Positions 3,310-56,500 of a stretch of DNA of 64,000 bases are shown in pieces. How positions within the stretch are numbered: position 1 is the first letter of the stretch; every line of letters begins with the position of its first letter. The position numbers and the translations under genes are program-made. The notes under the pieces are model-generated. The model ran no database searches. It was given only the letters and a program-made list of their open reading frames with translations, and had not been told where the DNA came from. The stretch comes from Mobula birostris (Eukaryota): NCBI RefSeq assembly GCF_030028105.1, contig NC_092376.1:179280080-179344079 (forward strand), in the 5' to 3' direction.

Positions 3310-4125
3310 GTGCGGAGGGAGCCAGGAGGGACAACTCCCTCCTGACACGTATCCTTGCAAGCGGAACAAGTGCATCACCTGCCCCATACAAGTCCTCGCT
3401 TAATACCATTCAGGGTCCCTAACAGTCCTTCCAGGTGAGGTGACACTTTACTTGTGTCTGTTGGGGTCATCTACTGTGTTTGGTGCTCACGGTGTGGCAT
3501 ATTGGATATTGCTGAGACCCGACGTAGATTGCGAGACCGCTGCGCCGAGCATCTACGCTTTGTCCGCCAGAGCAAGCGGGATTACCCAGTGGCCCCCCGT
3601 TTTAATTCCACTTCCCATTCCCATTCCGATATGTCCATCCATGGTCTCCTCCACTGCCGGGATAAGGCCACACTTAGGTTGGAGGATCAACAGCTTATAT
3701 TCAGTTTGGGTAGCCTCCAACTTGATGGCATGAACATCGATTTCTCAAACTTTAAGTGATACCTCCACCAACTCCCCCCCCCCCACCCCGCCTTCACCAT
3801 TTCCCCTTGTTATTCTCTCATGTTATCTGCTTTCCTGCCCATAACCTCCTTCTGGTGCTCCCCCCTCCCCCCCCCCCACCACTCACCATCACCTTTCTTC
3901 TTTCTTCCACGGCCTTCTGTCTCTTTCATCAATCAACTTCCTAACCCTTTGCTTCATCCATTCCCCCTGCAAGTTTCACCTGTCGCCTTCCCCAACCTTT
4001 CAAATCTACACTTCAGCTTTTTTTTTCCCCCTCTGGTCCTGCCGAAGGGTTTCGGTCAGAAACGTTGACTGTGTTTTTTTTCCCCCTATATGCTGCTTGG
4101 CCAGCTGAGTTCCTCCAACGTTTTA
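3310..4125 (+). mobile_element. 5'-truncated Penelope-like element (GIY-YIG endonuclease, pyrimidine-rich 3' UTR, hammerhead-bearing terminus)
   Basis: ORF 3454-3759 (VIYCVWCSRC...ETRRRLRDRCAEH...PVA..FN...GMNIDF) is a PLE-type GIY-YIG domain. It is followed by a C/T-rich tract and a hammerhead-like motif at 4034-4071. Confidence 0.85.
4034..4071 (+). ncRNA. Degenerate minimal type-I hammerhead ribozyme motif (PLE terminus)
   Basis: TGGTC-CTGCCGA-A-GGGTTTCGGTCA-GAAAC-GTT-GACTG versus window consensus CAGTC-CTGATGA-A-GGGTCTCGGCCC-GAAAC-GTC-GACTG. The core is mutated in this copy. Confidence 0.6.
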
Positions 4126-5612
4126 TAATCTATATTTTAACCACCATTCAAGGAGCAAACCAAACTTTTCACTTGATGTGAGGATCTGTCCAGGTCATCT
4201 ACTGCACCCGATGCTCCCTGTGCGTCCTGCACAGCAGCAGTGAGACCCGAAGAAGGTTAAAGTAGCGCTTCGATTCCTCCGCCGCAAAAGGCGGAAGTTC
4301 CGCACATCTTCAGAATCTCAGTGTTTATGATAATCTATATGCTCCTTTTCGTATTTTCGATCTCCTTTTCTTGGAAAGTTGAAATTCAGTGTGATGAGTT
4401 AGCTTCAATTCAATTACAGAGAATGGGCCGTTAAAGAAAGTGACACTTTAATGGCCCAGACCCTACCAGCTTCCGAAGGGAAAAACAGTCATATTTCTCT
4501 TTGAGTAAAAAGTGTACCTATTGCAGCTACCTAAGGTGAAGTTTGCCCGGGCTGGGCTGTTAGTTAAGTACAGCACGGACTGTCACAAGGACAGGAATGA
4601 CCCGGATTTTCCTGGAAAAGCCATCTGTCCATCGAGCACATCTACACGAAACGTCGTCACAGAACAGCCTCATCCAACATCGGGGACCCCCATCACATAG
4701 AATATGCTTTCTTCTTGCGGCTAGCATCAGGAAGAAGATACAGGAGGGAATATTAAGATCAAGATTAAATATTTTTTGCTGGCCGAAGATATAGTGAAAT
4801 ATCCAGTTGGAACGGAAATGCGATTTAGGAAACCCAATTAAATGGAAGTGGATACTTAATAGATGATAATCAGGGCATTCCATCGTCCTTCAATGCACCG
4901 TTTTATTTTGCTCCTTCTGTCCCATTATCTTGGATTTTACCAACCGGTTGTTAGTGCTGCAGATAAATTAATGTGGCATATCATATGGTGATCTCAAATT
5001 GTTGTTCCTTCAACATATTTGCACTAATGTTATTATCTCCTAAACCAGCGTCTTGCCATTACTTAAACGTCAAATTGAACTGGACCAAGCATGACTAAAC
5101 ACTAGACTGTTTATTTTTATATCAGTTTAAGACACAACTTTAAAATATATTATCAGTCTTTCAACGTATTGCGCTATTGGCGAGAACAAAGCCAACATAT
5201 AAAAAAACTAATTAAGTATATAAATTTAATGTCCTAATTGAAGACGTTTTGCGTGATGCTTAATACATGGGCATGTTTTTCAGTGTTGTTATAGGGAATT
5301 AGAAATAATATGTCTTCTATGTGCTCTTTAAATATATATTCTACACAAACTTATATTGAAAGTATTAATATATTTAGAAATCGCTGCTGATATTCAGCTT
5401 AACGATTTTATGGAATAGCTGGTTGTATGAGCAGTGTATATTTTACACTCTGTTGCCCAAAATCGTTAGTCATAATTAGAAAAAGAAAGGTTTTGCAACT
5501 TTTCAGTATGTAAAGTTGACAAGTATCCAGGAACTAAAGGAACTTAAATTCATTTACTATTCTCTAATTTGATTAATATTTTCATGGAAGTCAATATTTA
5601 TTGTGATATCGT

Positions 5613-10160: not shown

Positions 10161-10417
10161 AATATAGTGTTATTATGTAATCATTTGATTTTAACTATGG
10201 GTAAATTTAATATATATTCAAATTAATGTCAAAATTAAACATATTTTCAAAAATCAAGGTTGCGACTGCACTTGCAAAATGTGAAAATATCTACGCTTGT
10301 ACAGAATGAGCATTGAATGACGTTCCTAGAAACGTTAACAACGGTAATACTTATTGTTGATGCGAGTAAGAGACATGCAATTTCAAGATTATCAGAAGCG
10401 CAAGAGATTAAGCAGAG

Positions 10418-10860
10418 CAACGCACACAGAAGGAACTCAGACGGTCCTGCAGTATCTTTGGACCACAATAAATAGTCGAGGTTTCGGTCCGATGCCCTTC
10501 ATCACGACTGGGAAGGAAGGGGACGAAGTCAGAATTAGAAGGTGAGGAGAGTGGATGTGATGCAGGCTGGTAAGTTGTAGCTGAAACCATACGGGTGAAG
10601 GGTGGCGTGAACGGAGAAGGTCCGAGGTAATACGTGGAAGAGGTAAAGGGCTGCAGAAGAAGGAACTTAATAGGAGAGTTCAGTGGACCATGGAAGAAGA
10701 GAAGGAGGCTGGTCACCAGATGTAGGTGATGGGCAGATAAGAAGAAGAGAAGGGGAAAGAGGGGAAGGAAAACAGAGAATATGGAGGGGGAGAAATCACC
10801 GAGTTAAAGAAATCGATTTCGTGCCATCAATTTGGGGTCTACCCAGATGGAATATCATGA
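10418..10860 (-). mobile_element. 5'-truncated Penelope-like fragment with hammerhead motif (10473-10510)
   Basis: Reverse complement runs from the GIY-YIG end (ATATTCCATCTGGGTAG, compare ~3700) through a pyrimidine tract to CAGTC-GTGATGA-AGGGCATCGGACC-GAAAC-CTC-GACTA. Confidence 0.75.
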
Positions 10861-12050
10861 ACGTATTATTTTCAGCGTATTTTCAACTCATTACTGAAAG
10901 TTTACTGAAATATTTAACACCTCGCAGATTCAAAATCCATTATTAAATCGTTGAAAGGGTTTCTAATGCAATTTTTTTTCATTAAGATACTTGAGTTTTG
11001 CAAAAGCAATATAATGTGATGCAATGTAAATCTATTTATTAATGGTAAGTAAATTACGGAGAATTTTATATTTTGAATTCCATTTTGTGTATTTAAGAGG
11101 GAGAGGTGTAGCATTTATTAAAGGACTGGTAATTAATTTAGATAGATACAGGCACCGATCTCCTGCATGAATATTTTTTTATCGCTTGTAAAAGGAATAT
11201 TGCTAAAATCTTGATGTCAGCTTTCGACCCGAAACGCCGATTATTCCTTTGCTCCACTCGCTGAGTTTCCCTTGTAGATTTTGCTTCTTTCCCCTTTAAT
11301 TACTAGCGAATGATGTGACTTAAAAATGATTGTATAATTATTGTTTTGCAATTGTCTTACGCCTTAGTGAAATTAATGCAATACTGAACATGTTGCAATA
11401 GCAACACAAATTAAACTTCGGCGTAATGGAATCACGGGATGTATCTACCTTATCAATAAAATAGACAAGACATTAAGTAGTAAAATTTCTGAAATTCAAA
11501 TCCACTGAAGGACCATCAATGATATCTGAATTGTCCCAATCTGATATCAGTTAAAGACAATCTGCCAGTCTATCATCTATCGGCGATTCACGAATTTCCA
11601 GTCTCCTGTGTCTCTACAAAGTAAAACCACGGAAAATATTTAAGTTTCATGCTATTTTACGATACAAAGCAGCAAAAATAGCCATATGAATAAGGAACTC
11701 GAAGATCAAAGCAAATTTGAGATTAAACCGCACAAAACATGCAAAATATATTCAAATGCGAGTTTTACGCCAAAAAAAAAGAATACTGGCCATTTTAATT
11801 ATGAATTTATAGAATATTCTATTATTTTTTATTAGCACTGCAAAAGCTGTAAGGCATAATTTTAATTACAATTTTAAAATTGCTGCAAGTATATAGATCA
11901 GCCTGATTTTGTTTATCCATTGTTATTTAGATAAACGCTGACCAGAATAGAAAATATATTCGAGGATAACTTCTAATAATCATATTTGTAAAAATTTCAA
12001 TGGTTCATTTTAACATTTTATGGTTTGAAATAGGGTTCCACTTTATTGAT

Positions 12051-12173: not shown

Positions 12174-12323
12174 ACTGTGACTGAAAGCAGAAAACCATCG
12201 TTGCAGCTCATTTTAATTCTTCATCTTATTTCGTACGCTGGCTATCGTAGTTCGGACGTGGGCCAGAAAATTATCAGCTAGAACAACTTCTGAAGCTTGA
12301 AGAATCCACCCTTTGGGATTGAA

Positions 12324-14777
12324 ATGAAAGAAGCAAGCATTCTTTGTGTGCTTAGACATTCAGCGGCATCATCCGTTTTACTCCTTTGTGTGTGGAATAT
12401 GGTTTCCGGGCAGATTCGTTACTCCATCCCTGAAGAACTGGAACGCGGTGCTTTCGTCGGAAAAATCGGAGAAGATCTGGGATTGAGCATAGAGGAGATA
12501 TCAAGACGTAAGTTTAGGATCATATCAGCGGACACAGAACTGTATTTTGATATAAATCGCATGAATGGGATTTTATTTGTGAATGCAAGAATTGACAGGG
12601 AACAGCTGTGTGGACAGAGTGATAGTTGTGTATTGCTCATGGAAGCTTTGGCAGAACAGCCCAATGAGCAGTATCGTGTGGAGGTCTATATTTTAGATAT
12701 CAATGATAATTCTCCAAGTTTTCCGAACAAAGAAATCCGCTTAGAAATTAGAGAATCCGCCGCACTTGGAGTTCGTTTTGCGTTGGAGCGTGCGCAAGAT
12801 GCAGATGGGGTGAATAACTCGGTCCGTACGTATCATCTGACACAGAATGAGCATTTCATTTTAGAGGTAAAAAATCGTGGAAAATGGAAAGTACCAGAAT
12901 TAGTGGTGAATAACATTCTCGACCGAGAAACGCAATCGAGGCACCATTTGTTGCTCACGGCTCTGGACGGCGGATTCCCAAAAAGATCAAGTACCGCTCA
13001 GATAACTATAATTATCCTGGACACGAATGACAATCCTCCTGTTTTCGACAAGTCCTTGTACATTGTTAGCATAAAGGAAAACGTGCCATCGGATACTTTA
13101 CTGATTCAGCTAAACGCAACTGATTTGGACGTGGATAAGAATGCGGAGATCATTTATTCTTTCAGCAGTTACAATGAGCCAAGAGTAACTGAGATTTTTG
13201 CGATTAATTCCAAAACCGGAGCGATACATCTAAAGGAAAGTTTAGATTTCGAGGAAGCGAATGTGTATGATATTGATGTTGAGGCTAAAGATGGATATAT
13301 ACCGCCATTAATGTCACACTGCAACGTGCGGGTGGAAATCGGAGATGTCAACGACAATGCTCCCGACTTAACTATAAATTCGGATTCCAGTATAGTCAGT
13401 GAAAATGTTCCGAGTGGTACTTTGATCGCGTTGATCAGCGTGACAGACAAGGATTCCAACGAAAATGGATATGCTGACTGTTCTATCTCACCCAAACTTC
13501 CGTTTGACCTCAAATCATCCTTCAGTAATTCTTATAGACTCATAACAAATACAGCACTAGACCGTGAAAGTGCACCTCAATACAAAATAATGGTGACTTG
13601 CAAGGACCGGGGAAGCCCGCCATTATTTACTAACCGGACAATTGTGGTAAATATCTCAGATATAAATGATAATGCCCCACGCTTTACGCAGCCTACATAC
13701 ACGGCGTATGTAATGGAAAACAATGTACCTGGCAGTTATATTGGATCAGTGACAGCTCTGGATCTAGATATTGGCCGAAATGCTCAGTTGTCTTACTCTA
13801 TTGTGGAAAACGACCTTCAATCAGTGCCGGCATCTTCATATCTCTATATCAACTCAAACAATGGCAGCATTTACTCGAAAAGGACATTTGATTATGAGCA
13901 AATCAAAAGTATTCAATTTCAAGTTCGAGCGCAGGATGCTGGATTACCATTACTTTCCAGCACCGTTGTTGTTCAAGTGGTTGTTTTGGATCAGAATGAT
14001 AATCCACCGACCATAATGTCCTGGAAAACGACGCGCAGTGGTACTTTACATGTGCCCCGATCTGCAGATCCAGGATATCTGGTAACGAGGATCATTGCTT
14101 CCGATGCAGATTCTGGCAAGAATGCTCAACTTTCCTTTCAGCTGAAACAAAACAGTATTCCAGGACTTTTTATAATTTCACATAATTCAGGAGAAATAAA
14201 GAGTGTTCGTAGATTCAAAGATAGCGACGCTACCAAGCAAGAACTAATTATCCACGTGAAAGACAATGGCTACCCAGCTCTTTCTGCCTCTACTACCTTA
14301 ACATTGACAGCAACTGAACAACAGATAACCTATGAACCCGATTTTAAGGAACCACGCCAAGATTTAAAAGAAACTCGGAAATTAAGTTTTTATTTAATAA
14401 TTTCTTTGGGAACAACATCTTTTATTCTGCTACTGGTTATCATTGTCTTGGTTATCGCAATTTGCCCACTGGGCAGTAGTGCTGCTTCCGGAGTTGTTTG
14501 TTCCTTTGCTGACTTTTGCTGCACCAAAGAATTGGAATGTCAGCATTCCACTGTCAATCTTCACGTTACACCAGATTTCCACATACTTCCCAGTGTGCTT
14601 GAGGTTCACGGAAAAGGATCACTTACAGACACCTACCGTTATAAAGTTAGATCAGCACCTGAATCATCCGACATGTACTTCGCACCATACAGTCCAGAAA
14701 TGGCAAGAATTGTTGGAAAGGAAACTGCTTACATGTCGCAGGAATATCCAATGGCGAGGAGGGTCTGTTCAGATCAG
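12324..14777 (+). CDS. Clustered protocadherin variable exon 1 (SP, EC1-6, TM, variable cytoplasmic domain)
   Basis: First ATG at 12324 (the ORF track starts at TTG 12297). QIRYSIPEE, EC1 C-x5-C (REQLCGQSDSC), repeated DxNDN/LDRE motifs, TM. Phase-0 donor CAG|GTAAGT at 14777/14778; the unspliced frame stops at 14801. Confidence 0.95.
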
Positions 14778-16854
14778 GTAAGTAATGTCAACATGACGTA
14801 AAATATCAATGTTGAAACAAAAAAAAATGCGCAAACGGGTAGTTGAGCTTCCACGCATTGACCCATTGCCTTGTACATCTGCCATTTTGTATTATTTTAT
14901 ATATTTGTCGCATTTAAGAATTCTTGAGCGAATCCCTAAATAACATTCTTTGCAGACTGTTATGATCCGTTGATTAAACAAATGCACTAGAGAAGATGAT
15001 ATCGTTCCTGATCCTTTCTGTTTAATATCGACTTGACAGAAAATGCTTTTGTTCATCGCGGTTTTAGAGTAATACGGTCGAATACAGTAGTCGATCATGG
15101 CAGTGAAGTATAATATTTCTGAAGTTACTGATTTAGTATTTAAGAGCATCAACCGAAAGCATGCAGTGAAACAGGCAATCTTTTCGATATTTACGGTATA
15201 TTTCCTCGTTGAGTAAATATTTGAACTTCTCGTTCTTGTTATTCATTTTCCATTCGAGCCAATTTGGAACTTTCTGCAATAGCTTTCCCTGTGTTATCAG
15301 CAATTTCGTACATCAACGGGGTTAATGAATAAGCAGAGACAGGCAAGATAGATGTTTATAGTTTGACAAAACTACTTCGCCAAGAGGTGCAATAAACATA
15401 TGGCATATTGGCCTTCATAAATCAAAGCAATGAGTGCAAGGATGGGATGTTATGTTGAAATTTCATAAGATGATGAGACCTACTTTGGGGTATTGTGTCA
15501 TAAACACAAGAGAATCTGCAGATGCTGGAAATCTTGGAGTATTGTGGAGAGTTTTGGTCACCTACCTAAAGATATTAATAAGGTTGAAAAAGTACCGATT
15601 AAATTGGCATGGATGTCGACGGGACTGGAAAATCTGAGTTATTAAGAATGACTGAATAGTTCAAGACTTTATTTCTTCCATACCCATGTAGCTATTTTTA
15701 TATAGCGCTTTATACGATTGTTCTTAAGGTTATGTTTATTGTGCTCTTTTTTTTTTGTTTTCTTGTTATTTTTATTTTGCTCTCTGTGTTTGCTTTTATA
15801 CTGCATTGGAGTCGGAGTAAAAATCACTTCGCTCTCCTTTACACTCAGGTACTGAAGAATGGCAATCAACAATCTTAAATCTTAAATTTTGTACTTTGAA
15901 ATCTAGTGTCTAGTTTAAATTGTACTACAGAACCAACAAAGTTATGGTGCCTCTGAACTTGAATCTGTAGCAGCCGGTGTACCTATATTGCAGTTTTAAC
16001 AGTATTTGATATGCACCGTCAAGCTAGCAATAAATGATGCTTTCCTAACATCTCTGATATGTATAGTTCTCAAAGAGCAGATAAAAAAAAATATATAAGT
16101 TAGAACGACAATAGACTATAGACAGCAGAGAGCAAGTAGACTTTCACTAATAGCTATTAGGGACATTCCAGTCATTCCTGCCAGCATTTAATTGGAATTT
16201 AATTACAGAAATATTATCAATTAGTACCTCCCCGATTTTATTCATAAAATGCACAAAAGACGTCTCTTGCTTCCTTTACGTCCAGTTTTATTTTGTCAAC
16301 AATCGTGGTAAGATTGTGTCTTGTTCGGCATTGCATCATTCAAAGAGGCACTTAACTACGGTAAAAAAAAATGTTGCAATTAATGACAGAATTAAATGTA
16401 AAGTATTTTAAAAGTCTAGATAGCGACTACTCTTACAAACTAGGGAAATACCTGCCTCCTTGTTCAGAATGAGCATTGACTGAAGTTGCTGGAAATATTA
16501 ACATCGGTATGTTTATTGCTCATGTGCACGAGGAAATGCAAGTATAAGCTTTTATTTTGTTTTCAACGCATTGTCTAATTCAGAGCCAGGAACTTAGACA
16601 AATATTTTGCATCTGTGGGATTCAATATTCATTCTTAAATAATCGAAAAGATTTCAAATACAAAGTTTCCAATGAGGTACATTTGTTTCGCAGAAAAAGA
16701 AAATATGATGTAATGCAGATCAATATGATAGTGGTTAGTAAATACGCAAGAATTTTACATTTTGAATTTTATTTTATGCATCCTAAGAAGGAGAATTATA
16801 GCATTTATATAAGGTCTGCTTCTTAATTTAAACAGGGCTATTTCTAAAACCCTG

Positions 16855-19465: not shown

Positions 19466-19804
19466 ATATCAACCCGAAATGTCCATAATTTCTTTGTCGC
19501 ACGGATGCTGCTCGAAGCAGTGAGTTTTCCCGGTATTTTCTTTTAAATTATTCCAACTACAGTTAATACCTAATAATGTCACTTAGAAATCATTGTGTAT
19601 TTAAGTACTTGCAATTGTCTCATGCTTGTATCTTAATGAAATTAATGCAATACTGAAAAGGCTGCAATGGCCCAGGGATAGTTGCCAAATTAATTCGTAG
19701 CGGAATCTAAGGAGGTCCAATATTAGGAATACAATAGATGAAGGACTACACAATAATATTTCTGCTATTTCGATCCAATAAGTATCCATCAGTGATTACC
19801 TGAA

Positions 19805-41724: not shown

Positions 41725-43799
41725 TATATTTGAAGTACCTCAGTGAGTATACTCCTATAACACAAACGTTCAGCACTCTGGTCAAATGTGGACGCAATCA
41801 TATGTATTTACCTGAAAGATTAAAACTGCGTAATCAGGAATTGATTGAAGAAAAAAACAGTTTCAGCATGTGTTGCTGCTCGATTTTTTTTAATGATTGC
41901 GCGAGTGTTAAACAGCTAAGGTTTGGCTGGATTGTCCAACGCACTGGACATAAGCATAGTGGCTTGAATATTTTGCAGAAACTGTACTTGCAGCCCGCAA
42001 TACATTTAGCCATTCCCAGTGTCAAGCAGGATAGTTTCACTCGTAATGGAGATAGATCAATCAAATAGGCTGACGGAGACTGCAAAATCTTAGTTTGCAC
42101 TTTTACGCATATGCTGAACTTCCAGTTTTTGATGGCGTCGTAGTCCTCACAAATATTTATTGTACTATTGTTTTAACTTCTGCATTTTGAAACTTCGATC
42201 TAGCATATGTGGCAGTGTAAACTCTTTAATCTAACGTCCCCGACACTGAAAGCCGCTGATCAACGATTAGTTCTATCCACTGCAGCCATTAACTTTCTGA
42301 TATTTATAAGAATAAATAAATACATACATTGTGTAAACGGCACATTATCAGTCCATTAATGACTTCAAAGACTCGTTCGAATTTAAAACGTATTCGATAT
42401 CATTAGATAATAGATGAGGATCACTGGAATGAAAAGAAATCATATTTCAGTTCCAACAAAGAGTGCTTGATTTTGGAAATAACACTATATTGTTTTAATA
42501 TGTCTACAGATAGTGCATGACTTGCTGATTTTGCAGCATTTTCCATTCTTTTATTTATACACATTCGATTTTTCTTTTTGTTTTGTCCTTATTATTTTTT
42601 GTATCTCTGCCTTCTGCCAGCAATTGTTGGTATTATCTCTGCTATTCCCATTCTTATGTCCTCTCTTGCCACTTTGCTCCACAAATACCTGCCACCAACG
42701 GCTGCCATTTAATCTTTTGTTTTGCACTCTATCTTTTTCGTCATTGTTCCCCTTTCTAATTCCACTGTCTCAATAAGGTAGCCTTCCTTTCATTTCTAAT
42801 CAAAGTTGAAATGTTGTTTTGTACTTGTATCTCTTCAAACAGCATCTCAGATATTTTCTCATGTTATTTGTGTTTTATTGAAAACACAAAGACTATATGT
42901 GGAAGTTTTCTCTAAGCATATATATTATTATTAACTCGGTAAATTATAATATTGTAACTTGGACTTAAAATTGTCTCATGCAAGTTTTCAATAAATACTT
43001 GCTGTGATACAATTGAATCAGGTACAATTATGCACCTAAGACAAAGTTATACATTCTGCTGGTGCGTATAAAACACTTCTTACTGTGCTCAGAAAAATAA
43101 AAACAAACTGATGGGAATTTTGGAAAATATTTGTAGTAAGGAAGATCTTTGATACCTGTATCAACTGAAGTCCTATTGCACTGCAAAAGTAACTGAATGT
43201 AACCATTGATAGCCTCTTTATGATAGGAACTATCTTCATAACTGAAAACGTTGCCACAAACGTGAAAGCATCCTTGTGATTTTTAAAAATTTTATTCATG
43301 GTTTGCGTCAATAAGGGTTGTTTACAATCTTGCGGTAGCCTTCAGCAAGGTTAAATGTTGAAATTTTCAGCAAAGTCATTGAGTCTATCTCAAATATAAA
43401 GTAACTGTAATATCAACACGATTAAATGAGAAGAAGACCGTTGATATATAAACGAGTGATTATGGACCCTATACTAAAAAAAAGTTCTATACGTATTTGA
43501 GCGAAATATAAATGAAAACATATTCTTGCTTTGTTTAAAAATATTACAAAGATTGCAAGAAATTCTACCTCAAATAGAATTTAAATTCCACTTTCAATTG
43601 CGTAATAATTTAGCATTTCCGATATATATCTCAGCGACAGAATAACATTTTTTATATATATGTAATCCCTTAAGTAACGTGCCTGTCATTAAAATGTCAA
43701 TAAACCATTCGTTTCTGTTAGTTTCGTTTCAAATTAGTTCAACGATTTGTAAAAATAACTTGTAATTTTAATTTTTAACTGGAGTTCAATTTTAACAAC

Positions 43800-43922
43800 A
43801 CTGTCAGTGCAGTTATAGGCTGAGACTCTTTGTGTCGCTGTCTACCAATAAGGAGGTGAAATGCAGCTGGTGATCCACCACCCATCCCCCAATACCCGAG
43901 AAAGGACGGAAAGTAATGGCGG
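43800..43922 (+). promoter_or_regulatory. cPcdh promoter 4 (CSE, CGCT 43836)
   Basis: Invariant 43-mer at 43818-43860. Confidence 0.9.
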
Positions 43923-44061
43923 TGAGCGCAGAAACAAAGCGAACCTTTTATTCAGATGATCACTCCTCGACTTATTTCTTTGGATTGCTTTGGATATCAA
44001 GCAGAATGTGATCAACCGTAAACATTTGTTTAAGGTTTCAGTCATCTAACCTGCAAATGAA

Positions 44062-46521
44062 ATGGCACATAGGAGTGTTCTTTTCGAGCTGAGAAAGTCA
44101 GCGATAACCTCCATCTTTCTGCTTTGTGTGTGGAATCTGGTTTGCGGGCAGATTCGTTACTCCATTCCTGAGGAACTGGAACGTGGGGCGTTTGTCGGGA
44201 AAATCGGAAAAGATCTGGATTTGAGCATAGAGGAACTAACAAGTCGTAAATTCAGAATTGTATCAGTCACGTCAATACAATATTTGGATGTGAACCGGTC
44301 GAACGGTAATTTGTACGTGAATGCAAGAATTGACAGGGAACAGCTGTGTGGTCAGAGTGATGACTGTGTACTGCTCTTGGAAGCGGTGGTTGAAAACCCC
44401 GTCGAACAATACCGGGTGGAAGTTGAGATTCTGGATATCAATGATAACTCTCCGACTTTTCCGAACACGGAAGTTCGTTTGGAGATTCTAGAAACTGTAA
44501 TGCCTGGAGCCCATTTTCTGTTAGAGCGCGCACATGATGGGGACGGACGAAATAATTCCATTCGAACGTATCAGCTTAATTCAAATGAACATTTCATTTT
44601 AGATGTACAGAGTACTGGGAAGTGGAAGTTACCCGAATTAGTACTGGAGACATTTCTTGACCGAGAAAATCAGTCCGAATACAGTCTAGTACTAACCGCT
44701 CTTGACGGCGGTTCTCCAGAAAGGTCAGGTACCGCGCATATAACTATTGTAATCCTGGATGCAAATGACAATGCTCCGCTGTTTCATAAATCGCTGTATA
44801 GTGTTAATCTGAGGGAAAATATGCCGCCTAATTCTTTAGTGATTAACCTTCACGCGACTGACTTAGACGCGGGTATGAATGGCGAAATTGTGTATACTTT
44901 CAGCAGTAACAATGAGCCAATATTAAGCGAAATATTTACAATTAATCCACACTCAGGGGAGATTCGTACAAAAGGAATGTTGGACTTTGAGCAATCCAAT
45001 ATTTATCAGATTTATGTGGAAGCTAAGGACAGAAGCGTGCACCCGTTGTCTTCGCACTGTGTCGTGCGCGTCGAGATTGCAGACGTCAATGACAACTCTC
45101 CAGACTTGACAATAAATTCTATTTCCAGTACAATCAGCGAAGATAGTCCGACTGGAGCTTTGATAGCGTTGCTGAGTGTCACAGACCGTGATTCCAATCA
45201 AAATGGAGATATCGACTGTTCCATTTTTCCGAACATCCCCTTCGAGTTGAAATCTTCCTTTTCAAATTCTTACAGGCTTGTAACTAGTGCGTTACTGGAT
45301 AGAGAAAGAGTTGCTCAACATATAATAACGGTGACGTGTAAAGACCATGGTTCCCCTCCGTTATTCTCCAACAGAACAATCATTGTCAATATTACCGATG
45401 TAAACGATAATGCGCCACAGTTTACGCAGCCTTCGTATACGGTCTATGTCACAGAAAACAATAAACGTGAAAGTTACATTGGAAGAGTGACGGCATTGGA
45501 TCTTGATATTGATCGAAATTCACAAATATCTTACGCTATTTTGGAGCAACAGATTCAGTCAATGCCGGTATCTTCTTACCTCTATATCCACTCAACCAAC
45601 GGCAGTATCTACTCCAAAATATCATTTGATTATGAGCATCTTAAGACTTTTCAGTTTCGCGTTCGAGCTCAGGATGGCGGACTACCATCACTTTCCAGCG
45701 ACGTTACTGTGCATGTAATTGTCTTGGACCAGAACGACAATACGCCTACTATAATATCACCAGGAACAAAAGGCAATGCCAGTTTGCCTGTCCTCCGATC
45801 TGCATATCCAGGATATTTGATAACAAAGATCATTGCATCCGACGCAGATTCTGGTAAAAATGGACAACTTTTCTATAATCTGAAACAGGCCACCGTCCCG
45901 GGTCTTTTTATAGTTTCACATAATTCAGGAGAAATAAGGAGTGTTCGGCGGTTCAAAGATAGTGACGCCACTATACAAAAACTAACTGTTCAGGTGAAGG
46001 ATAATGGGTATCCATCTCTTTCCGCCACAACAACCTTAACCGTGACAGTAATTGATGAAGGTGCAACGTATCAGCCGGACATTAGTGAGCCGCGTCAGGA
46101 TCTAAATAAAACACAGCAATTAAGTTTCTATATAGTAATTATTTTGGGAGCAACGTCTTTAATTCTGCTGGTGATTGTCATCGTGCTTGTCGTCTTAATA
46201 TGCCCAATGGGCAGTAGTGCTGCTTCAATCAACGTCTGCCCTTTCGCACTCTGCTGCCGCACCAGGGAGTTGGAATACAGGTATCCAAATGCAAATGTCA
46301 AACCTCAGTCTGCTCGTGATTCCCACCTCATTCCAAATATACTTGAGGTTCGCGGCAATGGATCCCTTTCAGAAACGTATCGCTATAAAATCCGGTCGGC
46401 ACCTGAACCAGCTGAAGTATGTTTCACGCCATTCGGTCTACAGGTGGCAGGAACCATTGGAAAGGACGGCAGATTTACTCTGCAGTACAATGCAAAGCCG
46501 TTGCATAGCTGTTCAAATGAG
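44062..46521 (+). CDS. Clustered protocadherin variable exon 4
   Basis: ATG at 44062; SP, EC1-6, TM. Phase-0 donor GAG|GTGAGT at 46521/46522; unspliced stop at 46599. Closest paralogue of exon 3. Confidence 0.95.
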
Positions 46522-47587
46522 GTGAGTGCTGTGTATAAAATGGAACATGAAAATTTTACGAAGTTATTCCCCTTAGGGGTGAGACATTACTTGGTTTGAA
46601 ATACCAGCCGACGCTTACATTGATTGACATTTCCTGACTGCAGTTTTCATTACTTATGGAGTTTGATCATTCTTAAGATTAACTGTGTTGCATTGATAAC
46701 ATAATGTCAGTTATGGTGTTTTGCAATTTATAAGGCGAACTGAACCATATAAACTTGTGGAAACTAAACTAGTTGCCACCTCTCTGATATACAACATTAC
46801 AAGAGAAGATCCCTAATTTCGGTAACGGATTATTGCCAGATAAGCTTTACAATTTACAATTTCTATACTCTTCATCTGGTACTAATTCAGTACCCAAATG
46901 ATGGCTCAAACATTTGGTTAAAGGGGTAGAAAGAAATATTTATACCTTCACAGAACGTGCTGTGATCGAGTAAATATGTTGATTCGCCGTCGCAGCATCT
47001 CATTTCTGTTTGAAGTAATTTCCAACAGAACATAATAGCAATCCTTCACCTGATTACTTTCAGGGTCATTAGATAATTTAACATGATTAGATAACTCAAA
47101 AATGTATGATCTTTAAATTTTCAAAATTATTTGGAAAGAAGGTGTAATTAATCCCGATAAAAGTATTCATAACAATAATTGCAGAGTTTTGCAAACAATT
47201 TCAATTATTTGAAGTAGAACAGTAATGCTAGTTGTCCAGGCGAATCAAAGGATAGTATGAAAGTTGTTTGAGAGAGTCAAAGAGCACGTTAATGAGCCAT
47301 TCGGCCAACTCATCCCCGCCCACTTCTGATCACCAATCCTTTTTAATGCAAACTTCCAGCACGAAGCGCGCAGCCATCAATGGCGAGGCGATTGAAACAA
47401 TTCCGTCTTTAAAAGAGGAAAAATATCAGTGCCAATCTCTCCGTCCTTCTTGGCGTTCCTATCAAAGTATATTTTTGATAAATATTTATCAATATTAATT
47501 CTATTGTTATCTTTTCAAATGCTTTCTGACTTGCCCGGTACCGCCAGTACTCCATTTTGTTTCAGATTTCTGGCAACTACCTTCTCA

Positions 47588-47620
47588 ATCTATCTACATG
47601 TCTATTTGTTTGATCTCTCG

Positions 47621-47657
<37 letters not shown>

Positions 47658-47732
47658 AGTCTATTTGTCAATCTGTCTCGCTGTCTATCTATCTATTTGT
47701 CTATCTATCTGTCTATCTGCCTGTCTGTCTGT
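47588..47732. repeat. Compound (CTAT)n/(CTGT)n microsatellite
   Basis: Direct reading. A shorter paralogous array lies at ~33731-33778. Confidence 0.95.
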
Positions 47733-48689
47733 CCCACTCCCCCTACTTATAAAGAGAGACGATATTCACCCTCCAATAGAGACAGCCACAGCAGAATTTG
47801 CGATGTATGTTTCTCTCTTCATTATCTTGTATGGTTTACTGAGTATTTAGAGAATTGGCTGATTTTATTTCAATTTTCCGTGTTTTAACTAGCATAATTT
47901 TACTGATTCTATAGCTTTCTCAACCAGCTCCTCATCTTTGCACAGCCAGCTATGTATAGTTTCTTCCGATTAGTATAGAATTTTTAATAAATTTATACTT
48001 TTATATTTTATAATATTTTAAATAACGTTATTCATTTCGTCTATTTCAACTTATTACTTGAAAATTCCATTGAAATGTTAAAGGGCGTTTGGCAGCCACA
48101 AACTGCAAAGCCCTGTCATTCGTCGCTGCCACGTGACGTCATCACTCCTCACGCCCTGTTCCGACGTTGCTAAGGCATAATACATCCGTGATCATTGATG
48201 CTGGAGTGTCGTAACATGTAGAATATGAGGGCTTGGGAAAGTTGTCCACGACTGAAGTTGCTGTTAACCCTTTTAAGGATAAACAAGCACAGGTCTTTGG
48301 TGGATCCAACATGTCCTGGCTGAAAGTGTACCTGACTGGTCCATTACTTCGGGACAAAATACCGATATCAGAAAATAGTCAATGCTCACGCCAAGGAACA
48401 AAATTACTTAGATGGTGAGGGTGCTTGTATCTTACTGAGATACTTCAACAGAGTAGCGGGAGCATTAGTGCGCCACATATCACTTGGAGCTGTTGAAGTG
48501 TTCGTAATTATGCATTTGGCAAGGTTCAATAAAAAGAGGTTAGGTTTAAGTGGAGCAGTCATTGCGTGAATGCAGAGTATCAGAGTGGAGAGTTCAGTCT
48601 TTGACTAATAGAGACTTCACTGAGGGTAGACGAAGGCTATATGGAGAATTTTTCGTTTGATTTTTATTCATTTATTTTTGTTGCATATT

Positions 48690-48870
48690 TAGAGCAGTGG
48701 GGGTGCCAGACCTGATAATGAAATGCTCCTCTCTCGGGACGTGGGAAAGCAGGAAGACCTCCACTGTCCCTGAAGGCTACACCTGCAAGAACTGCATCCA
48801 GATGCAGCTTCTTGCAGACCGTGTTAAGGATTTGGAGTTGAATCTGAATGAACATCGGATCATTTGGAGT
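48690..48870 (+). mobile_element. CR1 ORF1 5' fragment (zinc finger)
   Basis: ORF 48697-48930 (MKCSSLGTWE...TCKNCIQMQLL) aligns to ORF1 at 34691. Confidence 0.75.
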
Positions 48871-48872
48871 CT

Positions 48873-49017
48873 CACACACAAAATGTTGAAGGATCTCAGC
48901 AGACCATGCAGCATCTGTGAAAAACAATAAGTAGGTGACGTATCAAGTCGAGACCCTTCATCAGGACTGCCAGACTGCCTGGCCTGCGGAGTTCCTCCAG
49001 CATTTTGTCTGCGTTGC
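48873..49017. mobile_element. Asymmetric inverted PLE-terminus element with hammerhead motif (48932-48969, minus)
   Basis: Left arm reverse complement is CAGTC-CTGATGA-AGGGTCTCGACTT-GATAC-GTC-ACCTA. The right arm is a shorter inverted copy of the terminus (CTGCCTGGCCTGCGGAGTTCCTCCAGCATTTTGT). Confidence 0.75.
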
Positions 49018-49382
49018 GATGAAGAACCACGTTGAAATTTAAGCGAGTGGTTATGAATTCTGCATAATGGTGATTATGGATTTGAGCGAAATTTAAACGA
49101 GAACATATTTTTACCTTGTTTAGAAATGCAGCCGAGATTGAAACAAATTCTCTCAAACAGAATTTAAATTTTATTTTTAATTGCGTAATAACTGTTCTTA
49201 ATATCTCTGCATATGTCTAAGCGAAAGAAAGACTCTTCTATATATTTATCATCGTTTAGATAACGTGTCTGTAGTTCAAATATCTATAAACCATTCTCCT
49301 TTGCAATGTCATTTCAAATTATTTTACCGTTTCCAAAAAAATTCTAAGTTTAAGACGCTAACTGGAGTTCAGTTTTGACAAC

Positions 49383-49506
49383 ATTTTCAGTGCAGTTATA
49401 GGCTGAGACTCTTTGTGTCGCTGTCTACCAATAAGGAGGTGAAATGCAGCTAGTGATCCACCACCCATCCCCCCATTATCCGGGAAAGGAAGCAAAATAA
49501 TGGCGG
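49383..49506 (+). promoter_or_regulatory. cPcdh promoter 5 (CSE, CGCT 49419)
   Basis: Invariant 43-mer at 49401-49443. Confidence 0.9.
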
Positions 49507-49669
49507 TGTGTGTGCGAACGCAGCGAACCAACTGTTCAACTGATCGTACTTTTTCAACTTCTTTCCCGCAATGAGGGTATTGGCTTGGATTTGCTGGAGG
49601 ATGATGTCAACTAAAATCATTTCTCAGATATTTACAATCTATCACACAGAAGGAATAGCACAAAGGAAC

Positions 49670-52105
49670 ATGTTCTGCATGCACGGAAAGTCGGTGATAT
49701 CATCCATCTTTCTGCTTTGTGTGTGGAACCTGGTTTCCGGACAGATTCGCTACTCTATTCCAGAAGAGCTGGAACTCGGTGCCTTCGTCGGAGAACTCGG
49801 AAAAGATTTGGGTTTGAGTATAAAAGACCTGCAGAGTCGTAAATTTAGAATTGTTTCCTCCGCTTCCAAACAATATTTGGATGTGAATAGCATAAATGGA
49901 ATCTTATTTGTGTGTGCGAGAATTGACAGAGAACAGTTATGTGGACAGAGCAATAACTGCGCATTGCTCATGGAAGCCGTGATTGAAAATCCTGTGGAAC
50001 AGTACCGAGTGGAGGTTGAAATTCTGGATGTGAACGATAATTCCCCGATTTTTCAGAAAAGTGAAATACGTTTGAAAATATCAGAATCTGCGATACCAGG
50101 AGCACGTTTTCTGTTAGAGGGCGCGAACGATCTGGATGGAAGAAATAATTCTATTCGTACGTACCAGCTCACTAAAAATGACCATTTTACATTAGATGTA
50201 CAAAGTCTTGGGAAGTGGAAGTTACCCGAATTAGTGCTACAGAGCAACCTCGATCGGGAAAAACAATCAGTATACAATTTATTACTGACTGCTATTGACG
50301 GCGGTGCTCCAGAAAGGTCAGGTACTGCTCGAATAACAATTGATATTTTGGATGTTAATGATAATGTACCAGTTTTTGAAAAGTCGATGTATAGTGTTAG
50401 TCTAATGGAGAACGTGCTGCTAAATTCTTTGGTGATTAAGCTTAACGCGACTGATTTAGACGAAGGTACAAATGGCGAAGTCATTTATTCTTTCAGCAGT
50501 TACAATGAGCCAAGAATAACTGAAATATTTACGATTGAACCCGAGTCTGGGGAGATCCGTACAAAAGAAATGCTGGACTTTGAAGAAGCTGATGTTTATC
50601 AGATTCATGTAGAAGCGAGAGACAGAAGTGTGCAGTCATTATCTACACATTGCAGTGTGCGGGTGGAGATCGCAGACGTCAATGACAACACTCCTGAGTT
50701 AACAATTAATTCTGGGGCTGAAACAATCAGTGAGGATGTTCCGACGGGAACTTTAATCGCTTTGATTGGTGTAACTGACCGAGATTCCAATAAAAATGGA
50801 TATATCGATTGTTCTATTTCACCCACCTTACCCTTTGACCTGGAATCTTCCTTTACTAATTCTTACAGACTCGTCACAAACGCAAAACTGGATAGAGAAA
50901 CCGCTCCTCAACATAAAATAACAGTAACTTGCAAAGACCGTGGGATCCCACCGTTATCGACCATCCAGACAATTGTGGTAAATATCTCAGATATAAATGA
51001 TAATACGCCACGCTTTACGCAGCCGTCTTACACGGCCTATGTGGCGGAAAACAATGAACCTGGCAGTTACATCGGATCAGTGACAGCTCTGGATCTTGAC
51101 ACTGATCGAAATTCACAGCTGTTTTACACAATTCTGGAGAACCAGATTGAATCAGTCCCCGTATCATCCTATCTCTACATTAACTCAAACAATGGAAGCA
51201 TCTATTCAATACGACCATTTGATTACGAGCAATTTAAACGTTTTCAGTTTCACGTTCGAGCTCAGGATTCCGGCGTACCATCACTTTCAAGCGACGTTAC
51301 AGTGAAGGTGATAGTCTTGGATCAAAATGACAATCCACCTGTCATACTATCAAGTCCAACCGAAGGCAATACCAGTTTGCGTGTCCCGCGATCTGCAGAT
51401 CCTGGATATTTGATAACAAAGGTCATTGCTTTTGACGCAGACTCTGGTAAGAATGGAAAACTTTCTTATGAAATTCTACAGTCCAGTGATCCGGGTCTCT
51501 TTGCAATTTCATATAGTTCAGGGGAAGTAAGAAATGTCAGGCGATTTAAAGATAGCGACGCAACGGCTCAGAGACTGGTTGTCCAGGTGAAAGATAACGG
51601 TTATCCCGCACTCTCTACCACCACCACCTTTATGTTGACAATAGTTGAGGAACAGTCGGAGGGTCTGGTGGACGTCAATGAAGCGAGTGACCATTTGGAA
51701 GACACGCAGAGATTGTCCTTTTATATAATAATTACTTTGGGAGCAATATCTTTTATTCTTTTAATCGTCATAATTGTCCTTGTTGTGGCTATTTGCCCAG
51801 TGGGCACCAATCCTGCTTCTAGACGTGCCTGCACCACCAAGTGTTGCAGCAGAAGAGATTTGGAATATGACAATTCGACAGTTAACATGCGTATTGTGCC
51901 GGATTCCCACTTCCTTCCCAGTTTCCTTGAGATTCAGGGAAATGGATCTCTTTCCGGAACACACTCCTATAAAATTTGTTCCACGAAGGAGCCAATGGAA
52001 TTACTTTTCACACCATTCAGTCAGCAAATGCATGGAACCATTGAAAAGTGCTCTAAATATGTGCCAGCAGAAAATACAAAAGCGAGGAACAGTCGGTCGG
52101 ATGGG
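49670..52105 (+). CDS. Clustered protocadherin variable exon 5 (start codon uncertain: 49571, 49601, 49604 or 49670)
   Basis: Open frame from 49571. The position homologous to the paralogues' ATG is ATA (49655). SP, EC1-6, TM. Phase-0 donor GGG|GTAAGT at 52105/52106; unspliced stop at 52225. Confidence 0.9.
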
Positions 52106-52324
52106 GTAAGTGTAACAGAATTGTCAGAAAAATTCAGTGGTGTAGCAAAACGCTACCCAAAATTCCAAGCATATAATAACTTTTATTTGCGGTTGAATTC
52201 CTTTTGTATTTGTTTCAGATATTGATAATTTATATTTAAGTCGATCTTACGATAATATTACTTCTCAATTTCTCAAACGTATTTATTGCACCTCATCTAA
52301 CCGAGCAATAGAACTTATAAGTAA

Positions 52325-52515
52325 CACACACACAACGCTGGAAGAACTCAGCAGGCTTGGCAGCATCTATGGAAGAGAGTAAACTGTCGACGTTCGGGAC
52401 GAGGCCCTTATACAAGACCGGCCCTGAATAAGGGTGTCGGCCCGAAATGTCGACTGTTTAACCTTTTCCATAGATACTGTCTGGCCTGCTGTCTTCCTCT
52501 AGCATTTTGTGTGGG
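52325..52515. mobile_element. Palindromic element made of two head-to-head PLE termini, each with a hammerhead motif
   Basis: Two ~95-nt arms are imperfect inverted repeats centred at ~52418-52421. The plus arm reads CGGCC-CTGAATA-AGGGTGTCGGCCC-GAAAT-GTC-GACTG (52419-52456). Confidence 0.8.
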
Positions 52516-53599
52516 TTGCTTTGGAAATCCAACATCAACTGATTTTCTTATATTTGTGAATATAACATAATCAACGTTCAGTGAAAGCCTTGTAGCTGCA
52601 CGGTACATGTCCTCCCATGTTTCGAAGTATAATTCACATCAGTTTAGTTTTACTTCTAATCTGACTTAAAATACTCTATTCCGACTTCTCCAATTCCTAT
52701 CAAAATAATTTATTCTCTGAAATCAGATAACCAAAACTATTGTAATCCTCAATCTCTGATCTAAGTCGTATTCTGCAAACTTATAGTATTGCTCCAGCTG
52801 CAGCACCATCTGGGATCATGCAATGCTGCTGAAATGCTGGCATCAGCACGACATTGCGGGAAATTATTTCAGACTGTGTTGCTGACAAAAAAAAACTCCT
52901 GTAGGTTGTCACCCAACCTACACTCAGTTGTTAATAATCTGTTATCCACATGCGTGGCAAGTATCACTTACACATGAATAATCGGCTCACCAAATGCAGA
53001 TTCATTTTAGCACTTAACAAAGACCTCCGGAAAAAAATTACAGAAATTAATTAGCACGAAGATGAAGTGAACCTAATTTTAGGAGTTATATCTCGTTCAA
53101 GTAAAATATTTTTGGAGGTTCGTATACAAATATTCCTACCACAAGACATCACTTTGAGAGTTTCTCACGACAATGCTAACCATCCATAACTGCTTAATAA
53201 AAGGCAGTCCTTTAATGAAAAAGGCCATTTGATGAATGTTCAATAGTTAACACTGTTATCACAACGTGATGTTCACTTTTACACAGAAATGCTGGATCAG
53301 CCAAACAAATAACTTTATGACATAATTTTAAAGTTACGTCAGAGACAGGATATGCCGTTGAGAGTGATTCACCTATTTACAAGCAGTCTTACTAGGATCA
53401 ACGAGATAAAAATAAATCAGCGAAATTGGGATAATCTGTACTTCAGTAGTTCAGGTTTATCATCGCTCAGATATGTCATTTTTTTGCGCAGTAGTAAAGT
53501 GCAATACATGATGTATAAGTATATATAGCGAAATGTGCCTAAGATATTTGCCCAGTACTGTAGGAGCGGAATTAGACTATTCCGACCATGGAATCTGCT

Positions 53600-56500
53600 C
53601 CGTATTCCATCATGGCTGCCTCAAATTCGGTCTGTGGTCAGGGACAACAGGGTGTCACTGCAAGTGAGGCGGGTAATGGATTCAAGAGATAATAGTGGAC
53701 GAGCCTCAGCGCTTGAGCTAATCCGACAGGTCTGCGATTTTTTTCTCCCTGTGTAGATGGGAATGGGGCGCTGTAGGAAGGATGAGTAACCTGACTGTGG
53801 CACCGTAGTTCAAAGAACCATTCAATGGGGGTGGGGGAGAGAGAAGAGAAATACAGTATAGTCAGGGGAATAGAGTTCTCTGTCGTGAGGATAGAGCGTC
53901 CTGACGGCTGTGTTGCCTGTCTGGGGCCCAGGTTCGGGGCATCTTACTTGACCTGCAGAGGAATCTGCAGTAAGAGGGGAAAGATCCACTTATCGTGATC
54001 TACGTGGGTACTAACGACATAGGTAGAACGAGGGAAGAGGTTCTGCTGAGGGAATTTGAGCAGCTAGGGACTAAATTAAAAAGCAGAACCAAATAGGTGA
54101 TAATCTTTGGATTTCCGCCTGAGCCACGTACAAATTGGCATAGGGTCAAGAAGATTAGAGATTTAAACCTGTGGCTCAAGGATTGATGTAGGAAAGGTTT
54201 ATTGGAATGACAAAAAAAAGAAAATCTGCAAGAGTTTCGACCCGAAATGTCGACTGTCCTTTTGTCCTATAGATACTGCCTGTCCTGCTGAGTTCCTCCA
54301 GCATTTTGTGTGAACTGTTCCAATGGAACGGGCACCGCCTGAACCGTGATGGGTCATGGATACTAGTGAATCACAGTGGGGCTGTGGATAAAGCTTGAAA
54401 CTAAATAGTGTGGTGGTGGTGGGTTCAACAGACTGCAGAAGTATGTATAAAGTAAAAGAGGAAAGTGTGGATAAAGATAAATTAAAAACAAAAATAAGAG
54501 AGAAAAGTAAGAGTGGAGTGAAGAAAAGTCAAGTACAAAATAGAAAAAGAATCCAAGATTTTAAGAGCACAATGAGTATAAAAGCACTTTTTCTAAATGT
54601 CCGTAGTATTCGAAACAAAGTCAGTGAACTTGTGGCACAAGTCAGTAAAACGAGGTAGATTTAGTAGCTATTACAGAAACGTGGTTACAGGGTGGAGAGG
54701 ATTGAGAATTAAATATCCAAGGATATCAGGTAGTACTGGAAGATAGGGAGGAAGGTAAAGGACGTGGGGTAGCGTTATTAATTAAAGATGAGATCAGGGC
54801 GACAGCGAGAGACGATATAAGATCTAAGGAGCAGAAGGTTGAATCCGTCTGGGTAGAGATTAGGAATAGTAAAGTGAAAAAAAAATCACTGGTGAGAGCT
54901 GTCTGTTGGTCACCGTATAATAACATTACAATGGTACAGGCAATAAACAAAGAAATATCCGAGGCATGTAAGAACAGAACAGCAGTTATCGTAGGGGACT
55001 CTAATTTGCACGTAGATTGAGCGAATCATGTTGGTCAAGGCAGTCTTGAGTAGGACGTCATGGAATGCGTCCTTAATAACTTTCTTGAACAGCATGTGAC
55101 TGAACCTACATCTTATCTTAGATCTGGTTCTTGGGAATGAGACAGGTAAAATTAGTGATCTTGTAATTAGAGATCCTCTTAGAAAGAGTGATCACAGTAT
55201 GATTGAGTTTCCCATATAAATGGAGCGTGCAATAGTTGGCCAGTGTAGACTGGGAACAGAAGCTATATGGTGGGACAGTTGAGAAACAGTGGAAGACATT
55301 CAAAGAGATTTTTTTGCGGTACTCCACAGAAATATATTCCAATTAAAAGCAATGACAGTAAGAGTTGGGAAAGCCAGCCTTGGATAACTAAGGAAATAAA
55401 AGAAAGCATCAAATTAAATGCTCGTGTGTACAAAGTCGCCAGGAGTAGTGTGAAATTGGAAGATTGGGAAATCTTTAAAAAGCAACAATGAAACACTAAG
55501 CGAGCAATAAAGAAAGGGAACATAGATTATGATAATAAACTAGCACAAAATATGAACACGGATACTATTTTTTTTATAATTATATAAAGCAGAACATGTT
55601 GGTCCCTTGGCGGATGAGAAGGGGGAATTGATATTGGGTAATGAGGAAATGGCCGAGCTTTGAATGACTATTTTCTTTCGGTCTTCACGGTGGCGGACAC
55701 GTCTAACATGCCAAAGATAGAAGTTACGGTGCGATGGGAGGTGCGGAACTCAATACAATAGCTATTACTAAAGAGGTAGTTTTGAGCAAACTTGTGGGCT
55801 TGATGATAGATAAGTCCCCAGATCCTGATGGACTGCATCCCAGAATATTGAAAGAAATGGAGAAAGTTTTAGTGGAAGCTTCGGTGATAATTTACCAAAA
55901 TTCTCTAGACTCTGGGTAATCCCGGCAGATTGGAAGACGGCATATGTCACGCCACAGTTCAAAAAAGGGATATAGGCAAAAAAAGTAACTATAGGCCTGC
56001 AGTTGAGAAGATGCTTGAAGCTATCATTAAAGAAGAAATAGTTAAGAATCTGGAAAGAAATGGATCTACCAGGCCTACGCGATGTGAATTCAGCAAAGCC
56101 AGGTCCTGTTTGCGAAATTTGCTGGGGTTGTTTGAGGCAGGGGTTGGTGCTGGGCCCGCAACTATTCACGATATACATTAATGACTTGGAAGATGGGACT
56201 GGGTATAGTGTAACTTCTTTGCAGGTGACACTATATTGAGTGGAAAAGCAAATTGTGCAGAAGATAAGAAGAGTCTGCAGAGAGCTATAGATAGGTTGTG
56301 AGTGGGCACGGGTCTGGCAGATGCAGTACAGCGAGATCATCCACTTTGGAAGGAAAATCGAAGATCCAATTATTATTTAAATAGTAAAAAATGCTGTGGT
56401 GCAGAGGAACTTGGGATTACTTGTGTATGAATCACAAAAGGTGGTTGCAGGTGCAGCAGGCTATCAAGAAGACAAATGTGTTGGCGTCATTACTATAGGA

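Follow-up and report, generated by a model that had tools for sequence, protein, structure and literature searches.

Decayed hammerhead motifs at the 3' ends of Penelope-like element copies in a Mobula birostris protocadherin cluster

The window analyzed here is a 64,000-nucleotide stretch of Mobula birostris DNA (NC_092376.1, positions 179,280,080 to 179,344,079 of the forward strand; coordinates below are counted from its first base). Five full-length variable exons of a clustered-protocadherin (Pcdh) locus lie on the plus strand over 12294..52225, at 12294, 22556, 30759, 44050 and 49544. Between them are debris of long interspersed nuclear elements (LINEs) as well as dispersed copies of a short motif that the original prediction described as eight minimal hammerhead ribozymes (min-HHRs). 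All eight are present at the positions and on the strands it gave, and a profile built from them recovered a ninth, decayed motif (nhmmer E 5e-9). We are confident in the joint reading that these copies are decayed pseudo-long terminal repeats (pLTRs) of a very abundant Penelope-like element (PLE) of Neptune/Nematis type, that the family consensus is a minimal type-I hammerhead, that they were likely copied from uncut RNA, and that the copies in the window are predicted to be inactive and are likely decaying neutrally.

Motif copies and their host element

The repeated character of the motif is evident from simple counts. A 15-nt stretch of one copy has 7 matches in the window at no more than 3 mismatches, against 0.59 expected, and none of 100 shuffles reached 7; one of the seven, at 4645, does not belong to the family. 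A search with the window's plurality consensus yields 6 places at no more than 11 of 38 mismatches and none in each of 30 shuffles.

Three copies extend upstream of the motif. The copy at 3341..4124 (+) is a 5'-truncated PLE copy of Neptune/Nematis type that runs from the linker through the end of the GIY-YIG endonuclease and the 3' untranslated region (3'UTR) to the hammerhead motif and a tail. Its C-X4-C-X2-C linker motif (CKRNKCITC, 3356..3382, +), aligned with four ray proteins carrying reverse transcriptase and endonuclease (RT-EN), is in a different frame from the endonuclease piece, a decayed C-terminal part at 3439..3759 (+) in which the YIG stretch reads DIA. The motif itself (4034..4071, +) lies 274 nt behind the endonuclease stop and has A6 changed, a GUU triplet and three of four stem II pairs. 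Behind the tail, a second and more decayed endonuclease fragment forms a partial tandem (4140..4299, +; tblastn E 1e-4, nhmmer E 1e-5). The same order is kept by the 5'-truncated copy at 10405..10857 (-), which holds the last endonuclease codons, the 3'UTR, a motif with C3 changed and a broken palindrome (10473-10510, -), and the tail; it matches the 4034 copy at 61% over 449 columns (E 1e-21). The third, at 27537..28024 (-), is also 5'-truncated and retains the 3'UTR, a motif with three core changes (27632-27669) and a tail with a longer 3' extension, matching the 10473 copy at 64% over 351 columns.

The other six of the nine are stubs, each roughly 100 nt long. The stub at 11206..11302 (+) begins at stem I, carries three core changes and stands in divergent orientation to the 10473 copy, with about 350 nt of unrelated DNA between the two. 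The ninth motif forms a heavily decayed stub with four core changes (19451..19547, +). The stub at 48859..48969 (-) begins exactly at stem I, has A14 changed and pairs at two of five stem I positions; an inverted tail-only arm (48974..49028, +; nhmmer E 2e-9) faces it head to head. A second head-to-head insertion consists of a left arm at 52312..52420 (-), whose motif (52384-52420) has four core changes, and a right arm at 52419..52536 (+), found in one piece in a second species, whose motif (52419-52456) has G8 changed and AUGU as stem III and is followed by a tail with the longer extension. The last stub, at 54230..54328 (+), is cut off inside the core, so that its 5' half-core is absent, and continues into the tail. 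One further fragment, at 42501..42547 (+; nhmmer E 5e-5), contains the tail only.

A tail of about 70 nt is common to all nine motif copies. Three also have the pyrimidine-rich 3'UTR upstream in common (61-67% identity, E 1e-33 to 6e-10); two of the copies extend as far as the end of a GIY-YIG open reading frame (ORF). The motifs are thus not free-standing ribozymes but parts of the 3' end, the pLTR, of a Neptune/Nematis-type PLE, and the shared tail, the 3'UTR homology and the GIY-YIG ends adjoining motifs bear out the PLE link that had been proposed. A CX2-5CxxC linker is a marker of Neptune and Nematis PLEs (PMC8557442). The C-X4-C-X2-C linker of the 4034 copy also occurs in the four ray RT-EN proteins, Mobula/Hypanus fragments that are 58-76% identical to the endonuclease piece. 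Three of these four give weak Pfam GIY-YIG matches (18.8-20.9 bits, against a cut-off of 22.6), and the piece at 3439..3759 itself has no Pfam match. The assignment draws on the linker and on a GIY-YIG domain with CCHH-type residues, and it covers Neptune and Nematis jointly. No RT was found within the window, and the related proteins hold the RT end only.

The copies are arranged as PLE insertions usually are: heavily truncated at the 5' end, partly in tandem, with inverted copies next to one another and with a 30-40-bp tail that may or may not be present (PMC8557442). All four traits occur in the window, as the nested truncation series, the 4140-4299 fragment, the head-to-head units at 48859-49028 and 52312-52536, and the longer 3' extension common to the 27632 and 52419 copies, whose score was equalled by none of 500 random stretches. 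The two 3' end lengths fit an optional 30-40-bp tail and two start sites of reverse transcription. The best target-site duplication matches, 8-9 nt, are at the level of random flanks, and no tandem motif units were found within the window.

Hammerhead consensus in the window and beyond it

The consensus originally drawn by eye agrees with the plurality consensus computed from the nine copies, except at two tied columns: the first base of loop II, and the base that opens the 3' strand of stem II, which is G or A. In the plurality consensus the core is complete (11 bases), A9 is followed by an extra A, and stem II has 4 bp closed by a 4-nt loop; the ACGU palindrome and a GUC triplet are present as well. 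The unpaired base between A9 and stem II is A in 8 of the 9 copies; the G10.1-C11.1 pair is G-C in six and G-U in one. The palindrome at 15.2/16.2, which has no loop III, is intact in three copies and reads AUGU in three others.

We also aligned public contigs from DNA runs of two species to 52405-52545 at 80% likeness. Contigs matching this one copy number 5,543 in the run of the first species and 5,916 in that of the second, and their summed depth is not equivalent to copy number. One of the runs may come from the same sample as the window, and no RNA run was listed as carrying the stretch. The majority of loose ends before 52423 reads ...CCAGT (234 and 263 contigs; agreement 0.45 and 0.43), and the majority before 52430 reads ...CAGTCCTGATG (92 and 87 contigs; agreement 0.47 and 0.46). 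These majorities correspond to an intact stem I arm followed by CUGAUG, the 5' half-core that the 52419 copy has lost. Tail-anchored contigs read GAAACGTC or GAAACATC, so that the tail is preceded by GAAAC(G/A)TC (89 and 89 contigs; agreement 0.59). The CUGANGA ... GAAA ... UH core of the proposed type-I minimal architecture is found in the window plurality and again in the loose-end majorities of two species. By consensus the motifs match the published minimal type-I hammerhead, a predicted self-cutting RNA motif.

The contigs also date the head-to-head insertion. A single contig of the second species covers 52405-52545 and shows 6 differences over the 141 nt, which implies that the 52419 insertion predates the species split. 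Its junction has a depth of 8.85-22, against about 1e5 next to the junction; this single-copy depth indicates a one-off insertion that was not amplified as a unit. Joints leading from 52526 to 52430 and from 52530 to 52436, back by 97 and 95 nt, are each represented by one contig in both species. They suggest rare tandem motif-plus-tail units elsewhere in these genomes, and it is in such units that a dimer in cis would best be sought. Outside these genomes, pattern scans for the family returned 0 loci in viral contigs and, with a tail-anchored pattern that does not select for the core, 0 loci in metagenome contigs. Searches for relatives by protein alignment gave 82 pattern matches in metagenome contigs and 15 in viral contigs, and 0 were confirmed in either set.

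Several results weigh against our reading of the family, and they concern the genome-wide consensus, the stems, the folds, the completeness of the element and the power of the strand comparison given below. Agreement among loose ends is only 0.43-0.59, and mutated copies are over-represented in their subsets, where CpG-type changes occur at G12, G16.2 and G1.1. The per-position table is biased to the reference and omits 52428, 52429, 52436 and 52448, where the reference differs from the family. For these reasons the genome-wide consensus is approximate. Covariation of stems I and II among the nine copies is not above shuffles: 71% of stem cells pair, compared with 12-45% in slid controls, and 67-251 of 500 shuffles reach this value with only nine decayed copies. 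The G-C to A-U change in stem I of the 11206 copy is real. This copy belongs to those that have decayed furthest (11 of 38 differences) and is not flanked upstream by pLTR, and pairs changed on both sides number 3 in the family, against 2.4 +/- 1.2 in shuffles (reached by 220 of 500). As these counts lie within the shuffle range, the change is no evidence of the compensation that had been suggested for it. Likewise, the loop-closing pair of stem II varies as U-A/U-G/C-G, which is compatible with a stem yet within the shuffle range.

Folding models point the same way. In the modelled monomer, core bases G5-G8 are preferentially tied up with CGUC in a rod (-12.7 vs -10.5 kcal/mol); the open hammerhead makes up a predicted 2% of the monomer's ensemble. 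Nearest-neighbour energies place a double hammerhead at -19.3 to -19.9 kcal/mol, compared with -24.8 to -25.4 for two monomers, and an inactive dimer joined through GUCGAC and stem II at -30.3 to -34.9, in an energy model that leaves out tertiary contacts and magnesium. Such modelled energies agree with weak hammerhead activity. The full hammerhead was the lowest-energy structure in 0 of 7 single copies folded, and a low z-score was obtained only for the 52419 copy (-2.63), for another fold. Because neither a full-length element nor a second pLTR was seen in the window, the dimer partner can only be inferred.

One could take these results to mean that the hammerhead likeness is a chance property of a repeat end, since covariation does not exceed shuffles, single copies mostly fold otherwise and Rfam covariance models gave no hammerhead family match in the window at E up to 10. 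We consider this hardly conceivable, given that the consensus unites 11 core bases, base 9.1, G10.1-C11.1, both stems and the palindrome, at the pLTR position that the motif occupies in PLEs of many phyla.

Cleavage, insertion ends and decay

The published model has two pLTR copies of the same RNA combine into a double hammerhead (PMC4209133; reviewed in PMC6765202). A Schistosoma minimal motif was not cleaved as a monomer, and its dimer and trimer constructs were cleaved weakly (PMC4209133). The hammerhead of PAc, an element of Anolis, cleaves only with the element's protein; catalytic mutants left insertion in vitro unaltered, and reverse transcription begins at two internal sites that set the insertion ends and the tail (PMC11167929). 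In the family described here, a loopless ACGU cannot close stem III within one strand, so two pLTR copies would have to exchange strands. In the RNA of an active element, the ACGU of one pLTR would pair with that of the other to give a 4-bp stem III, and each core would cut after GUC, weakly and probably aided by the RT-EN protein. An internal start of reverse transcription, some 65-100 nt beyond the motif, would fix the 3' ends with the short and the long tail, and priming from both nicked strands would give rise to the inverted stubs. The window agrees with the PAc findings: each of the nine motif copies includes the cut site, so their templates were uncut or re-joined, and the copies end at two distances beyond that site. 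Of the obligate dimer first proposed, the dimer itself stands as the published expectation; as more than an inherited model it is not supported, given unfavourable modelled energies and an Anolis hammerhead that needed protein. By analogy with these systems, an obligate dimer is a reasonable default for the geometry, protein help is likely, and cleavage may be needless for insertion.

How much of this the element actually uses can be read in more than one way. It is quite possible, without being the outcome we expect, that the hammerhead is real but acts with protein assistance or is dispensable cargo, so that no RNA dimer is needed. The PAc results just described would fit, as would the uncut site in all window copies, the unfavourable modelled dimer energies and the Naiads, which lack canonical hammerheads yet proliferate (PMC8557442); the loopless ACGU that a single strand cannot close and the weak cleavage of Schistosoma dimers and trimers speak for a dimer, with which protein help is in any case compatible. 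The stubs carry information of their own. They lack the pLTR upstream of the motif, with 2-7 of 20 matches, whereas the best pair of long copies reaches 11 of 20, in an ungapped test in which the long 4034 copy scores only 7-8. Three or four of nine insertion events start at stem I; the associated P of 1e-2 to 1e-6 assumes uniform truncation, an 8-nt window picked post hoc and copies chosen for the motif, and it serves as a lead only. We offer, as a tentative and on balance doubtful proposal, that the stubs preserve, as a kind of fossil record, the layout of the element's RNA. Two internal starts of reverse transcription would be marked by the 3' ends, and the 5' ends would pile up at the first base of stem I since the transcript begins there. 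The hammerhead would then form the 5' end of the RNA and trim 33 nt only in a protein-bound dimer, and insertion would use uncut RNA. If this is true, end mapping of thousands of ray copies could test what PLE hammerheads do.

The stubs might instead constitute a separate non-autonomous family, similar to retrozymes or to miniature inverted-repeat transposable elements, that multiplies as a short hammerhead unit. Their share of the motif copies and the two rare joints, which hint at tandem units, would be expected in that case. We judge it improbable: the copies form a nested 5'-truncation series into the 3'UTR and endonuclease, the 52419 head-to-head junction is at single-copy depth, and the window holds neither tandem motif units nor target-site duplications above random.

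The state of the cores is better explained by age than by selection. As originally noted, every copy carries a core or stem mutation: all 8 copies that have the 5' half-core carry 1-4 changes among the 11 core bases, and in the partial copy at 54231 that half-core is missing. A descriptor of the intact core found 0 sites on either strand of the window and detected the consensus as a positive control. Differences from the consensus affect 18 of 94 core cells, 59 of 237 non-core cells (p=0.31) and 60 of 295 tail cells. Sense cores are changed at 9 of 50 positions and antisense cores at 9 of 44 (p=0.80), or 5 of 39 and 9 of 44 among the eight motifs first listed (p=0.39), a comparison in which nine copies give little power. 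At about 20% divergence, the chance of finding no intact core among eight copies is 0.44-0.50. Age thus accounts for the damage, as core decay equals tail decay. CpG decay was considered as a cause of the broken cores and rejected, since CpG columns in the window differ at 11 of 72 cells, compared with 65 of 258 elsewhere, and G12 is kept in 9 of 9 copies.

The second cause that had been suggested, selection against cleavage within the long Pcdh pre-mRNA, would have active sense copies purged or mutated. The sense copies are indeed all broken, and Xenopus introns are reported to be depleted of tandem retrozymes. Antisense copies are equally broken, the eight motifs first listed differ in the opposite direction, and cores decay no faster than the tail; the idea is accordingly unsupported. 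Moreover, solo minimal motifs showed no cleavage in vitro (PMC4209133), and the sense copy at 52419 lies within a predicted hairpin of about 200 nt with its inverted twin. We regard such selection as very improbable. The copies likely decay neutrally as junk DNA and leave the protocadherin genes around them untouched. Alone they have little meaning, as the copies in the protocadherin cluster look inert.

The Pcdh exons have further features in common. A 118-nt block lies upstream of each variable exon (12027-12144, 22289-22406, 30484-30601, 43776-43893 and 49359-49476), is 82-95% identical to the reference copy and is likely a promoter. There is also a sixth Pcdh exon, in fragments, at 5581-7280; it has the shared block upstream, is only about 61% like the other exons, and precedes an N gap of 133 bases (7332-7464). 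The last variable exon has its likely splice donor at ~52106, and some 210 nt behind this donor the head-to-head insertion at 52312-52530 is predicted to fold on the plus strand as a hairpin of about 200 nt (-118.8 kcal/mol; mononucleotide shuffles give z -13), which in the pre-mRNA may serve as a double-stranded substrate for RNA editing. Two young LINE copies at 20062-21735 and 36667-38587, inverted and 94-95% alike over more than 1.6 kb, lie 15 kb apart and enclose two Pcdh exons. Another LINE, at 17367-19390 (-), has an RT followed by an ALKBH8_N-type domain; immediately past the 5' side of this LINE comes the hammerhead stub at 19451. The ORF at 34881-35624, upstream of a LINE RT, has a GDSL-like esterase domain (E 9e-11); it is likely the ORF1 esterase of a CR1/L2-type LINE. 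Finally, 62850-63400 is GC-rich and composed of short repeated units that yield several repetitive ORFs.

Relation to known hammerheads and Penelope-like elements

The published min-HHR consensus consists of a U-rich segment, CUGANGAH, G...C, GAAAN, a palindrome, NUH and an AU-rich segment (Cervera and De la Pena 2014, PMC4209133). The min-HHRs of metazoan PLE pLTRs in that work share with the present family the type-I fold, CUGANGA with an extra base, G10.1-C11.1, GAAA and a palindromic, loopless stem III. They are likewise set in U-rich flanks behind a GIY-YIG ORF and are mostly solo, with some close opposite-strand pairs. The loopless ACGU stem III noted in the original prediction is not new but the commonest form in the 2014 alignment: CGU directly follows GAAA in 29 of the 56 rows of Fig. 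S3, 13 of them with a GUC triplet, as counted by hand in extracted text whose GAAA column is shifted. The Acropora digitifera Neptune row resembles our consensus in its 4-bp stem II, tetraloop, extra A and CGUC, and the Nematostella (2) row in its 4-bp stem II with a tetraloop. The 4-bp stem II is shorter than the 7 bp of the fugu, Xenopus and snake rows, and the stem I sequence is family-specific. None of the 56 rows is from a cartilaginous fish, and the available text of that supplement file names no shark, Callorhinchus, skate or Leucoraja.

The Neptune/Nematis PLEs with an endonuclease (Craig et al. 2021, PMC8557442) have the C-terminal GIY-YIG domain with CCHH-type residues, the CX2-5CxxC linker and a pLTR hammerhead. 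They also show strong 5' truncation, partial tandems, an adjacent inverted 5'-truncated copy and the optional 30-40-bp tail; unlike them, the window is without an RT. PAc, a Poseidon element of Anolis carolinensis (PMC11167929), resembles the ray family in that its insertions end at fixed points downstream of the hammerhead, occur with two 3' end lengths and include the uncut site. It differs in belonging to another clade and in an ORF that starts in stem II, a start not established here.

The small PLE hammerheads that cleave as dimers (Lunse, Weinberg, Breaker 2017, via PMC6765202) have a very short palindromic stem III and a dimer model, a likeness drawn from their description only. Animal non-LTR retrozymes share a type-I hammerhead derived from PLE pLTRs, and those with hammerheads have been reported in one chondrichthyan genome (bioRxiv 10.64898/2026.07.22.740005). 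Retrozymes form tandem arrays with intact motifs, whereas the window copies are dispersed, solo or inverted, and broken. We found no publication on this ray family in the literature searched on hammerhead ribozymes, Penelope/Neptune, sharks and Chondrichthyes, and subscription papers or supplements may list it. Its abundance allows genome-wide counts of starts and ends relative to the cut site and a well-powered comparison of intronic sense and antisense copies. As a ribozyme family it is ordinary: the ray Neptune-type family is a further case of the 2014 motif, known across many animal phyla.

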